Shown: piece after piece, positions 6,529 to 10,966 of the stretch
Layout: the number at the start of each line of letters is the position of its first letter
How positions within the stretch are numbered: the first letter of the stretch is position 1
Virus genome (UHGV): UHGV-1798460
Source: a virus
Reading direction: 5' to 3' (one strand)
DNA length: 12,978 bases
Program-made: the position numbers and the translations under genes
Notes under the pieces: model-generated
Told to the model about the DNA's origin: nothing
The model's input: only the letters and a program-made list of their open reading frames with translations
Database searches by the model: none

Positions 6529-7497
6529 TTAGTAGGTTATTTTTGTTGCGAATACTTCGCCTTTTACGATGGCTGTTATGATATTTTTAGCAACATCTTC
6601 TGATGCACCAACCTTGATAAGGTCAGCAAGTATTTTGTTATTTACTTCTTTCCGGTGAGCTTTATCCTTTGCTCTACACTCTTCCTCTTCCTTGATTCTT
6701 TTTTCTTCTGCTATTCTGGCTTGCTCTTTTGCTTCAGCCTCGCGCCGGATTCGTTCAGCCTCCTCCTGTGCTTTTCGGCGTTCTGCTTCGATTGCCGCCT
6801 GCTTTTCTCTTTCAGCTCGTTCTGCTGCCTCTTTTGCTTCGCGCTGTGCTCGTTGCTCGGCTTCAATGCGTTCACGCTCTGCACGTTCCGCTGCGGCCTT
6901 AGCTTCTGCTTCTCGCCTTGCTGCTGCTTCAATTTCGGCTTTTGCCTTTGCTTCGGCTTCTGCTCTGGCTTTCTCTTCAGCTTCTCTTTTTAAGCGTTCT
7001 TCATGCTCTCGCTTTTCCTGCTCCGCTTTGAGTCTTGCCTCTTCTCTTTGGCGGTCAAATTCGCGATCCATCAAAATCGCTATTTCATGGTCAGACTCAA
7101 TTTGCTTTGCGAGAGCTTCAGCTGCTGCCTTAGCTTCTTCTTCGGCTTTAATCCGCGCCTGTTCCTCTTCATAATCAGTAAGAGGCTGGCGTGCCTTGGA
7201 TTTCAGCTCATCAAGGCGATCACGCACTGTCTTGCGGTTGGCATCAATTAGCTTTGGAATTTCCTTCAGTTCAGCAACAAGGTCTTTTCCAAGACCATCG
7301 AGATATGTTTTCGTCTGCGCAACTTTATACGCCAGAGAAGCGATCTCCTTTCTGCCCTTTGCCGTTGTGATATCAGGCACAAAGGACATAACTTCACGTT
7401 CAACCTTTTGAAGGATTTCTTCAATCTGGTCGGCAGACTGAAATACAGTCATTGCATTTGCTTTTTCAATAACAACTAAATCTGTTACTTCACTCAT
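6529..7497 (-). CDS. Coiled-coil protein (322 aa) with a long E/R/K/A-rich central repeat region
   Basis: Start ATG at 7497 with GGAGGA upstream. The ORF-track 5' extension to 7551 runs through the terminator hairpin and is rejected. The central 150 residues or so are almost entirely E, A, K and R. Confidence 0.65.
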   Translation of the reverse strand: MSEVTDLVVIEKANAMTVFQSADQIEEILQKVEREVMSFVPDITTAKGRKEIASLAYKVAQTKTYLDGLGKDLVAELKEIPKLIDANRKTVRDRLDELKSKARQPLTDYEEEQARIKAEEEAKAAAEALAKQIESDHEIAILMDREFDRQREEARLKAEQEKREHEERLKREAEEKARAEAEAKAKAEIEAAARREAEAKAAAERAERERIEAEQRAQREAKEAAERAEREKQAAIEAERRKAQEEAERIRREAEAKEQARIAEEKRIKEEEECRAKDKAHRKEVNNKILADLIKVGASEDVAKNIITAIVKGEVFATKITY

Positions 7498-7509
7498 ATA
7501 TCCTCCGTC

Positions 7510-7538
7510 AAAAAAATTGCCCTCACACTGGAGGGCAA
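7510..7538 (-). terminator. Intra-operon rho-independent terminator (tL-like) immediately upstream of the coiled-coil gene RBS
   Basis: On the minus strand: stem TTGCCCTC/GAGGGCAA with loop CAGTGT, followed by TTTTTTT. The T-run ends 3 nt before the GGAGGA of the next gene. Confidence 0.55.
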
Positions 7539-7672
7539 AGAAGATTTCCAATAATCAGAACAAGTCGGCTCCTGTTTAGTTACGAGCGACATTGCTCCGT
7601 GTATTCACTCGTTGGAATGAATACACAGTGCAGTGTTTATTCTGTTGTTTATGCCAAAAATAAAGGCCACCA

Positions 7673-7924
7673 TCAGGCAGCCTTGTTGTAAATGTTGCAG
7701 GTATCAAGTAAGTAATTAGATGGAGCGCCATAAATTATGAATTCATCGTTTGTCGGGTCCATCTCCATCTCTTGGCCTATTGCCATTCTTGCGTCAGTGT
7801 CGTCAGCGGCGAAGCATAAAACAGCCCACGCACCCATTGTTTTAAAAAGAACTGCAATTGGCTGTGGTTTTACTGAATTTGCGTTAGCGCGAAAATCACA
7901 AATCGCACTTTCATGAAACTCCAT
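7673..7924 (-). CDS. Hypothetical phage protein (83 aa)
   Basis: ATG at 7924 with GAGGTGA 4-5 nt upstream. Confidence 0.55.
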   Translation of the reverse strand: MEFHESAICDFRANANSVKPQPIAVLFKTMGAWAVLCFAADDTDARMAIGQEMEMDPTNDEFIIYGAPSNYLLDTCNIYNKAA

Positions 7925-8214: not shown

Positions 8215-8418
8215 TTACCTCGCTGTAACCTGCTTACTTGTACGATGACCAGCTGCGAAAAGCGCAACTTCTGGCAGGCAGACAGTACCACCTTCAACTT
8301 CCTTCTGAAGCGTTCCGGCAAGCGAAATGGCTCTTGAAACACGTTTACTGGCTCCGTCCATGATTTTCATGAAAGCCATATAGTGCATTGGCTTCTTTCC
8401 TTGCTTGTTTGGCATCAT
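8215..8418 (-). CDS. Small ORF at the position normally held by the N antiterminator; start uncertain and no arginine-rich motif
   Basis: The ORF overlaps the HNH gene 3' end by 74 nt if it starts at 8418. Candidate ATGs at 8388 (weak AAGGAAAG) and 8361. It is the second gene after PL. Confidence 0.3.
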   Translation of the reverse strand: MMPNKQGKKPMHYMAFMKIMDGASKRVSRAISLAGTLQKEVEGGTVCLPEVALFAAGHRTSKQVTAR

Positions 8419-8878
8419 CTAAAAGTTTGAATGAGCCTAGGTATTTTCGTTTTCCATCCACAGTTATCGATGCAACATAAAACCCATGCTCTTTTCTTGC
8501 TTCAACACCTGTAACTCCAGTTGATGAAGATGATTTTAAAGGCATGTTTTTCATATTCTCTTTGAAAGAAACGCTTCTTAAATTGGAGATTCTGTTGTCA
8601 TCCTTAACGCCGTTTATGTGATCAATCACATCAGGCCAGTAGCCATGCACGTAAAGCCATGCAAGTCTGTGAGACTTAAATTTTTTACCTCCAATATTTA
8701 TTCTCAGATAACCCTTGTTGTCAGGTGAGCCAGCCTTTTTACCTGGATACTTCTTGTTCCACGTCAAGGCAGCTCTGTTATCCGCAAACAAATGCTTTGC
8801 TCTCGGCTTCCAATAAAAGTCACCACTCACAGGATTGTAATAAAGAATCTCCCTTACAGACGCTTGAGTAAGATCCAC
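8345..8878 (-). CDS. HNH endonuclease with C-terminal AP2 DNA-binding domain (free-standing homing-endonuclease type)
   Basis: GTG start at 8878 with AGGAGG 5 nt upstream. HNH_3-type motif HRLAWLYVHGYWPDVIDHINGVKDDNRISNLR, followed by an AP2-like GVTGVEARKEHGFYVASITVDGKRKYLGSF. Confidence 0.8.
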   Translation of the reverse strand: MDLTQASVREILYYNPVSGDFYWKPRAKHLFADNRAALTWNKKYPGKKAGSPDNKGYLRINIGGKKFKSHRLAWLYVHGYWPDVIDHINGVKDDNRISNLRSVSFKENMKNMPLKSSSSTGVTGVEARKEHGFYVASITVDGKRKYLGSFKLLDDAKQARKEANALYGFHENHGRSQ

Positions 8879-9957: not shown

Positions 9958-9984
9958 AAAGCTATTTACTTTCTGAATAGCTTT
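9958..9984. promoter_or_regulatory. OR operator: perfect inverted repeat AAAGCTATT-N9-AATAGCTTT overlapping PR
   Basis: Read directly. Extra partial half-sites (AGCTATT-like) at 9937-9943 and 9985-9991 suggest a tripartite operator. Confidence 0.6.
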
Positions 9985-9993
9985 GGCTATTAT
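9965..9993 (+). promoter_or_regulatory. PR-like early-right promoter (TTTACT-17 nt-TATTAT)
   Basis: -35 at 9965-9970, -10 at 9988-9993; the operator half-site lies within the spacer, mirroring PL. Confidence 0.5.
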
Positions 9994-10255: not shown

Positions 10256-10374
10256 TAAAGCAAATTTTTATACCGAACGGCCCGGTATACGGTCGGGTGC
10301 CCGGCGTGGTCATGGATGACTGTCAATGGTGCACAATAAAAAACCAAATTATTTACCTATGGAAATAGTAAGAA

Positions 10375-10671
10375 ATGGAACAAACAAGTTACAGCAAACT
10401 ATCCCAGCGTGACGTTGATCGCGCAGAAACCGATTTACTCATCAACCTGTCAACGCTTACCCAGCGCGGTCTGGCAAAGATGATTGGCTGTCATGAATCG
10501 AAGATAAGCAGAACGGACTGGAGATTTATTGCTTCGGTCTTGTGTGCTTTCGGAATGGCATCAGACATCAGTCCGATTAGCAGGGCTTTTAAGTATGCGC
10601 TTGATGGACTCACCAATAAAAAACGCCCGGCGGCAACCGAGCGTTCTGAACAAATCCAGATGGAATTTTAA
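10375..10671 (+). CDS. cII: CII transcriptional activator
   Basis: The C-terminus TNKKRPAATERSEQIQMEF matches the lambda CII C-terminus as I recall it; HTH LAKMIGCHESKISR. The start is not well supported by an RBS. Confidence 0.8.
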   Translation: MEQTSYSKLSQRDVDRAETDLLINLSTLTQRGLAKMIGCHESKISRTDWRFIASVLCAFGMASDISPISRAFKYALDGLTNKKRPAATERSEQIQMEF

Positions 10672-10693
10672 CAACATCCAACGAGGTAATTAT

Positions 10694-10966
10694 ATGCGAA
10701 ACAAAGGCTTTAATCCACCTGATACACACAAAGAAGCTAAGCGTTTGCGCTTCCTTCGTTCCATTGATGAAAGAACTCAAATCTCTTTTGTGAAAGTTGC
10801 CAGAACTGAGCTTCTGAAGGCTGAGGCGAGGGCGTTGCTCCCGTCTCTACCAAAAGAGGAGGGATATACGTTCATTCCAAACGCATTTCTGGAAAAGCTT
10901 CTCAAAGAAGACATATCCGTAAGTCAGTTTAACGATGTTCTTAAGGTCTTTCGTCAAGGCAGGTAG
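10694..10966 (+). CDS. Hypothetical protein (90 aa) between cII and the replication initiator
   Basis: ATG at 10694 with GAGG 6 nt upstream. The ORF-track N-terminal extension overlaps cII and is rejected. Confidence 0.5.
   Translation: MRNKGFNPPDTHKEAKRLRFLRSIDERTQISFVKVARTELLKAEARALLPSLPKEEGYTFIPNAFLEKLLKEDISVSQFNDVLKVFRQGR

Follow-up and report, generated by a model that had tools for sequence, protein, structure and literature searches.

The virus genome UHGV-1798460, a stretch of 12,978 nucleotides that will be called the window, has a leftward early operon on its minus strand. The PL-like promoter of this operon (TTTACA, 17 nt, TATAGT; 9045-9017) aligns with the PL promoters of phages HK022 and APC_JM3.2. 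About 1.5 kb downstream of it, in the gap between an open reading frame (ORF) of 83 amino acids and a gene of 322 amino acids, stands a hairpin followed at once by a run of T's (7538-7510), and this element is the subject of what follows. Read from the sequence alone, it had been taken for an intrinsic terminator 3 nt upstream of the ribosome-binding site of the larger gene and for a likely checkpoint of delayed-early expression. I consider it highly probable (about 85%) that the hairpin and its T-tract are the window's copy of the lambda terminator tL2a and also the 3' end of a small RNA (sRNA), PreS, encoded at 7597-7510.

The first gene downstream of the terminator will be called the coiled-coil gene (6529-7497, minus strand). 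It is followed by cIII, kil, erf, and ssb, all of which match PHROGs families, as the sequence-only reading had named them. Polymerase must read through the terminator to reach these delayed-early genes, and in this the sequence-only reading is supported.

The terminator

TTGCCCTC (7538-7531) and GAGGGCAA (7524-7517) are, on the minus strand, the two arms of the hairpin, 5' and 3' respectively, with CAGTGT (7530-7525) as the loop between them. Seven T's follow (7516-7510), then GAC (7509-7507), GGAGG (7506-7502), ATAT, and the start codon ATG (7497-7495), which is exactly the arrangement originally described. An intrinsic terminator is taken here to be a GC-rich stem of 5-14 bp with a loop of 3-8 nt and a U-tract right after the stem, located downstream of a promoter on the transcribed strand. 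The stem-loop (7538-7517) has a stem of 8 bp, five of them G-C, whose arms a repeat finder returns as perfect over 8 nt; its loop is 6 nt, the T-tract (5-8 T in relatives) adjoins the stem directly, and the PL-like promoter lies upstream on the same strand. RNA folding had been suggested as one check of this hairpin, and the fold, once run, gave -13.2 kcal/mol with z = -3.4, one shuffled sequence in 200 being as stable. A consensus scan lists the hairpin among 27 terminator-like sites (shuffles gave 12.6 +/- 3.4), and its equivalent is annotated as a rho-independent terminator in the GenBank record of phage mEp234 (JQ182732). Judged by anatomy, a bona fide-looking intrinsic terminator within the leftward early operon is supported. 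That RNA 3' ends would form here is indicated indirectly, by homology: the lambda counterpart is tL2a, and the 3' end of the lambda RNA called LPR1 maps there.

A homologue of PreS

The intergenic gap of the window (7689-7511) aligns with that between ral and ea10 of lambda, with three substitutions only. According to a 2024 preprint by Silverman, Nashef, Bruner, Noy, and Melamed (10.1101/2024.10.31.621285), the lambda gap encodes an Hfq-dependent sRNA, LPR1, renamed PreS, which lies between ea10 and ral and has the terminator tL2a as its 3' end. The primers in Table S5 of the preprint set the 5' end of LPR1 at GAGCAATGTCGCTCG and its 3' end at GAGGGCGATTTTTT (10.1101/2024.10.31.621285). Placed by these primers, the homologue in the window runs for 88 nt from GAGCAAUGUCGCUCG to GAGGGCAAUUUUUUU (7597-7510, minus strand). 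Against lambda 34011-33925 it is identical at 87 of 88 positions, with a single substitution (G80A) and one extra T. Where lambda has a basal U-G pair in the terminator stem, the substitution gives U-A; the tail of the window's RNA is U7 and that of lambda U6. The homology is full-length, and the preprint's own threshold for homology is at least 92% identity, with the PreS sequence found in 2,537 genomes (10.1101/2024.10.31.621285).

The seed of the window, CUUGUUCUGAUUAUUGGAAAUCUUCU (7564-7539), is identical to that of lambda, for which the preprint also lists seed-deletion primers. The triplet CUG that pairs with dnaN (mutant M1) is at 7558-7556 and the triplet GAA that pairs with alaS (mutant M2) is at 7548-7546, both unchanged from lambda; the mutants are those defined by mutagenesis primers P838/839 and P888/889 (10.1101/2024.10.31.621285). 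An anti-Shine-Dalgarno stretch, AUCUUCU, occupies 7545-7539. In the predicted fold of the whole RNA (-29.2 kcal/mol, z = -3.8) the seed region is largely unpaired. The RNA closes with a GC hairpin and a poly-U tail, the Hfq-type 3' module described for LPR1 (10.1101/2024.10.31.621285).

The surroundings agree as well. In the window PreS has the 83-amino-acid ORF on one side and the coiled-coil gene on the other, with cIII, kil, and erf farther downstream in the PL operon, and in both phages it separates the second gene block of that operon from the third. Both phages also have a 14-bp hairpin just upstream of PreS and a terminator-like hairpin before that. The genes on either side differ: lambda has ral upstream and ea10 downstream where the window has the 83-amino-acid ORF and the coiled-coil gene. 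Phage mEp234 is 99.0% identical over the 401 nt compared and has the same flanking genes (terminators at 25522-25550 and 25668-25694 of JQ182732).

In lambda the RNA has been characterized. Northern blots detect two forms, one of ~88 nt and a processed one of ~68 nt that gives the stronger signal; both can be seen from 10 min post-induction but not in lysogens, and PreS is reported to be made only in the lytic cycle (10.1101/2024.10.31.621285). It is enriched with Hfq, and RNA interaction by ligation and sequencing (RIL-seq) found 47 partners, with essential host genes enriched among them; in the text covered here, the supplementary tables of the preprint mention neither ea10 nor ral as a partner. 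PreS opens the ribosome-binding site of dnaN, raising a dnaAN-gfp translational fusion ~4-fold, and it lowers alaS ~2-fold; compensatory mutations confirm both effects. Deletion of the seed leads to less lambda DNA replication and a lower yield of spontaneous phage and plaques, an effect dependent on Hfq (10.1101/2024.10.31.621285).

If the same is true in the phage of the window, the course of events may be pictured as follows. During lytic development, transcription leftward from PL (~9010) would cross the early genes. RNA beginning beside the upstream hairpin and ending at the terminator, through termination or 3' trimming, would become PreS of ~88 nt, perhaps to be cut further to ~68 nt as in lambda. 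Hfq would bind it by the GC hairpin and U-tail, and the single-stranded seed would pair with host mRNAs, opening the ribosome-binding site of dnaN and repressing alaS. More sliding clamp would then allow more replication of phage DNA. Expression of the coiled-coil gene, cIII, kil, erf, and ssb would fall to the polymerases that read through.

Several points weigh against this interpretation. Expression, dependence on Hfq, targets, and phenotype have been shown in lambda only, and the main source is a preprint, which is silent on how the ends of PreS arise (10.1101/2024.10.31.621285). PreS appears to lack a promoter of its own, a sigma-70 scan upstream of 7597 being empty and no acceptable -10 or -35 hexamers being visible by eye. 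Rfam 15, searched with the whole window at the gathering threshold, gives no match and has no family for PreS; a local search by E-value gives one match of the terminator, to RyhB, at the level of chance (E = 0.79, scoring 19 bits where the gathering score is 55). Finally, a polymerase modified by N or by the RNAs discussed below should ignore the terminator, and the share of PreS that comes from true termination may be small or large. Part of PreS may come from 3' trimming of read-through RNA, since the polymerases that reach the site are largely resistant to terminators. The presence of PreS in phages of the put type, discussed below, sharpens the question of how an sRNA that ends at a terminator arises from polymerases built to ignore terminators. 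A search of the literature on tL2a, and on RNase III together with ea10, gave nothing further.

Other identities were considered and set aside. AgvB and AsxR belong to a different locus, the moron site of PR', and the preprint on the sRNA Pas does not mention the PreS locus. A small ORF of 32 codons runs through PreS, from ATG at 7592 to TGA at 7496-7494, overlapping the start of the coiled-coil gene as ATGA. It is rejected because the T-tract varies from 5 to 8 in relatives and the frame is not conserved; the spacing in GGAG-CA-AUG is also too short.

There is precedent for an RNA of this kind. StxS, from the PR' transcript of Shiga toxin (Stx) phages, is an sRNA ending at an early terminator. 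The lambda 6S RNA at tR' is discussed as a comparison in the preprint (10.1101/2024.10.31.621285). Both follow the logic of PreS, in which a terminator in an antiterminated operon gives a short RNA and gates the genes downstream, but theirs are late operons and that of PreS the early-left one, and their sequences are unrelated and their targets different.

The element is the 3' module of an RNA gene and not a checkpoint alone, and here the sequence-only reading, which missed the sRNA, must be amended: the 88 nt that end at the hairpin correspond to a published Hfq-dependent sRNA. The feature is real, probably functional, and already known, since tL2a is annotated in a near-identical phage and PreS has been characterized in lambda. 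The value of recognizing it lies in correct annotation: what seems a plain terminator is a widespread phage sRNA that reprograms replication of host DNA.

Read-through and the start of the coiled-coil gene

How polymerase passes the terminator depends on the antitermination system, and in this respect the window departs from lambda, where read-through requires N. The status of N in the window, at first thought unclear, can be settled: there is a C-terminal remnant of N behind an HNH gene, and there are put RNAs of the HK022 type. The first of these, a putL-type antiterminator RNA, lies directly downstream of PL (9012-8936, minus strand) and has 92.8% identity, over 83 nt, with what comes just after PL of HK022; AACCAT is present. 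In HK022 putL, A3-G7 pairs with U19-C15, and the -10-like AACCAT lies at +23 to +28 (PMC9378689). The HK022 sequence after PL fits this published numbering, and stem I of the window's putL differs from that of HK022 by a compensated base-pair swap. A putR-like RNA lies between the cro-like ORF and cII (10274-10338, plus strand). Its local alignment with the window's putL scores 56, compared to 22 +/- 3 for shuffles (maximum 33), and it is ~275 nt downstream of a PR-like promoter (9965-9993); the published position of putR is ~270 nt downstream of the PR start (PMC9378689). There are, then, both a two-stem element of ~70 nt after PL and a second copy at the position of putR. No family in Rfam 15 detects put RNAs in the window. 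By homology, these RNAs would permit read-through with no phage protein required.

As for N, no complete ORF with an N-terminal arginine-rich RNA-binding motif was found in the window. The ORF at 8215-8418 matches positions 48-100 only of the 100 in Pfam N_peptide, that is, the C-terminal half, and residues 44-87 only of the 87-residue N protein of mEpX2, the last 44 residues being homologous. Upstream of the remnant, between it and putL, an ORF on the minus strand (8345-8878) encodes an HNH endonuclease (phrog_99 at 2.8e-66; Pfam HNH_3). An isolated Salmonella phage, UPF_BP1, has the same layout of putL, HNH gene, and N remnant, and APC_JM3.2, also isolated, has putL and a shorter N remnant with no HNH gene. 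Both phages are viable with putL and a remnant of N, and N looks like a decaying relic in phages of the put type. The possibility that a group I intron surrounds the HNH gene and splits N is rejected: Rfam gives no intron match, and APC_JM3.2 has a shorter remnant despite having no HNH gene. In HK022 the place of the HNH gene and N remnant is presumably taken by nun, for which the HK022 record carries no annotation.

Because put RNAs are present and N is only a remnant, read-through of tL2a in the window is most likely licensed by put RNA (putL at 9012-8936, putR at 10274-10338) and not by N. The PreS block is also present in HK022. In mEp234, unlike the window, an intact N gene resembling that of HK97 lies downstream of PL. 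PreS travels, as the window shows, with phages whose antitermination is based on RNA (put) and not on N.

Does the hairpin also affect translation of the gene that follows? The sequence-only reading pointed out that in read-through RNA it would sit on the translation initiation region (GGAGG at 7506-7502, ATAT, and ATG at 7497-7495). Computation supports an effect of this sort, and the predicted partner of the Shine-Dalgarno sequence is the AUCUUCU just 5' of the stem. In the predicted fold of the read-through RNA, AUCUUCU (7545-7539) pairs with GGAGGAU (7506-7500), lengthening the terminator helix across an internal loop of 10 nt. The Shine-Dalgarno sequence is then predicted to be unpaired with a probability of 0.01 (~99% paired), as opposed to 0.41-0.61 for the start region alone.

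From this one may construct a rival account, in which the importance of the element lies in cis: the PreS stretch would block translation of the coiled-coil gene until relieved by cleavage, remodelling by Hfq, or excision of the sRNA. Besides the calculated occlusion and a local 61-nt fold of -18.2 kcal/mol, the idea draws on the recurrence of occlusion (0.01-0.06) in all 9 of the listed rows with a coiled-coil-type junction, and on the fact that the same stretch, in lambda, acts on the Shine-Dalgarno sequence of alaS to repress it (10.1101/2024.10.31.621285). I nonetheless think it rather improbable. It is a thermodynamic prediction, the local fold is not exceptional (z = -2.1; 6 shuffles in 200 do as well), the helix has to span the internal loop, and there is no covariation to draw on. 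Moreover, a CU-rich seed will complement any strong Shine-Dalgarno sequence, so the pairing may be incidental. Occlusion is weaker at other junctions having GGAGGA (0.08-0.42), and at the lambda ea10 junction it is absent (0.58 with PreS versus 0.68 without), so that it is predicted in the window and not in lambda.

The coiled-coil protein itself has no known function. It matches phrog_1376 at 1.4e-109 and nothing in Pfam. Its N-terminal (1-115) and C-terminal (111-322) portions match separate PHROG families of unknown function, which suggests that the gene is a mosaic. RefSeq calls its homologues 'TolA' or 'coiled-coil domain-containing protein'.

A second and less likely account is the original one in its pure form, that the hairpin stops polymerases that have not been antiterminated and that the RNA released has no function. 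In its favour, the terminator is canonical and the homologue of a named lambda terminator, three terminator-like hairpins follow PL in series (7990-7960, 7684-7663, and 7538-7517) with this one as the last, and an antitermination system of the put type is there to overcome it. It is too much, however, to expect a terminator, which needs only a stem and a U-tract, to keep 60 nt upstream of it nearly invariant despite differing flanking genes. The lambda RNA binds Hfq and regulates dnaN and alaS through the conserved stretch, and deletion of its seed with the hairpin left in place lowers the yield of phage (10.1101/2024.10.31.621285). The two roles are compatible, and the pure checkpoint is incomplete rather than wrong. 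It is the classical view of tL2 and is partly right: there is a terminator, a homologue of tL2a, and the genes beyond it are reached by read-through; what the view misses is the sRNA.

Conservation of the block and the hairpin at its 5' end

A query of 401 nt (7400-7800) is matched in part, at 95-99% identity, by 341 phage records and by 2251 of 5426 complete E. coli genomes, about 40% of them. The majority are confined to the stretch up to 7511 or to that from 7689 onward, and the intergenic block is thus common to phages with different neighbouring genes.

A scan of viral contigs for the exact seed gave 120 loci; variation is given below for 110 standard loci, and that of the 5' hairpin for 122 copies. 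Downstream of the terminator stem three junctions predominate: 47 loci begin with ATATGCATACC, 45 have the ea10 junction of lambda, and 24 have that of the window, T-tract-GA(C/T)-GGAG. The last is part of a cassette (T-tract, GA(C/T), GGAGGA(T/A)(A/T)T, ATG; 7516-7498 in the window) that precedes at least five different ORFs, which begin MSEVTDL, MEITDIL, MKLRVWH, MIKTDYP, and MFATDIS. Because different ORFs follow, terminator-GAC-GGAGG is best seen as a shared cassette with a mosaic junction at the start codon. Upstream the break points vary, and many loci lose the first hairpin yet keep the 14-bp hairpin next to PreS. Between these junctions little changes. The 6-bp core of the terminator stem (GCCCUC/GAGGGC) is almost invariant over the 110 loci while the loop varies (CAGTGT, CAATGT, TAATGT, and others), and the body of PreS shows ~0.003-0.005 substitutions per site per sequence.

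Might the block of 180 bp be conserved mainly as a linker for recombination between lambdoid modules, with the hairpins as passengers? Non-homologous DNA does flank it on both sides, with three major classes downstream and many upstream, and with breaks at the T-tract or start codon on one side and at several points on the other. Mosaic junctions, however, are to be expected at any conserved functional element and so are no argument against function, and what is conserved is the seed, the stems, and the U-tract. The recombinants are instructive. Locus L059 and two further viral loci have recombined inside the seed, after UUGGAAAUC, and are without the CUUCUUU stretch; their terminator, GCCGCUC-UAUAU-GGGCGGC plus AUUCUUUU, differs from the tL2a type. 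Others retain PreS but have another hairpin at its 5' side. Recombinants that keep the seed or PreS with swapped neighbouring hairpins point to selection on the function of the RNA, and I regard the linker as highly improbable.

The hairpin next to PreS deserves a closer look. The sequence-only reading had noted a second inverted repeat in the gap. The repeat is real, a perfect 9 bp, GTGTATTCA-N10-TGAATACAC, present in the window as a single copy with 0 expected by chance; it lies, however, at 7599-7626, 10 nt away from the position first given (7589-7616). Nor is it merely a neighbour of the first: it is part of an RNA hairpin that abuts +1 of PreS. Folded, as had also been suggested, it proves stronger than described: a stem of 14 bp closed by a CAAC loop (7628-7597, -18.8 kcal/mol, z = -6.3), which extends to an imperfect hairpin of 20 pairs in 22 (7636-7589, minus strand, -24.9 kcal/mol). 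Positions +1 to +9 of PreS fall within the 3' arm of this longer hairpin, +1 being the 14th nucleotide from the loop.

The 5' hairpin is identical in 106 of 122 copies and shows no double compensatory changes, the variation being too low for a covariation test of the stems. At five loci (L012, L028, L054, L071, and L077), unrelated sequence replaces the 14-bp hairpin ~35 nt upstream of the seed, and the replacement can itself fold, into a hairpin of 11 bp whose loop is UACG and which ends 2 nt before GAGCAAUG, the 5' end of PreS. A hairpin of unrelated sequence at the same spot in five loci favours a role at the level of RNA for the one that abuts +1. That the repeat is instead an operator in DNA for a dimeric regulator is very unlikely, for although the palindrome is perfect, with a spacer of 10 bp, and occurs once only in the window, the RNA stem lengthens through G-U pairs to 14 bp and then to 20 of 22, needlessly for DNA binding, the replacements at the five loci fold anew, HK022 tolerates an insertion within the repeat, and there is no known candidate for the binding protein.

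The insertion in HK022 (NC_002166, 4494-5697; locus L125) is a copy of the insertion sequence IS903 and interrupts the hairpin that precedes PreS. The bases equivalent to 7620-7612 of the window (TCATTCCAA) flank it on both sides, as in a target duplication of 9 bp. HK022 has PreS with a disrupted 5' hairpin and so offers a natural mutant for the role of the hairpin.

The geometry of the hairpin at +1 is compatible with cleavage specific for double strands, and I suggest, with low confidence, that the hairpin may mark or create the 5' end of PreS. One could go further and propose that the hairpin (7636-7589) acts as a signal of the RNase III type by which PreS is cut from antiterminated PL transcripts, and that in uncut mRNA the Shine-Dalgarno sequence is paired in cis. 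This combination is speculative and I would not bet on it. If it were true, translation of the first delayed-early gene would be coupled to excision of the sRNA or to remodelling by Hfq. A hairpin that serves as processing signal and occlusion of the Shine-Dalgarno sequence in cis, both of them predictions, are possibly what is new at this locus.

Of the two terminator-like hairpins that precede PreS in the operon, the nearer (7684-7663, minus strand, -13.9 kcal/mol) is followed by TATTTTT and overlaps the stop codon of the 83-amino-acid ORF. It was missed in the sequence-only reading. Its lambda homologue is the hairpin that immediately follows ral, and its equivalent in the GenBank record of mEp234 is also annotated as a rho-independent terminator. 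The farther (7990-7960, minus strand) is a stem of 14 pairs with a weak T-tail, after an ORF of 75 amino acids, and is possibly the equivalent of tL1.

Two other sites may be mentioned. A sequence on the minus strand at 10610-10700, CCATCTGGATTTGTTCAGAACGCTCGGTTGCCGCCGGGCGTTTTTTATTGGTGAG, matches the 3' end and terminator of OOP, an antisense RNA of lambda whose terminator is the t0 of vectors. The region overlaps the end of cII, and Rfam reports nothing there. At 1398-1425 there is a bidirectional hairpin, terminator-like on both strands.

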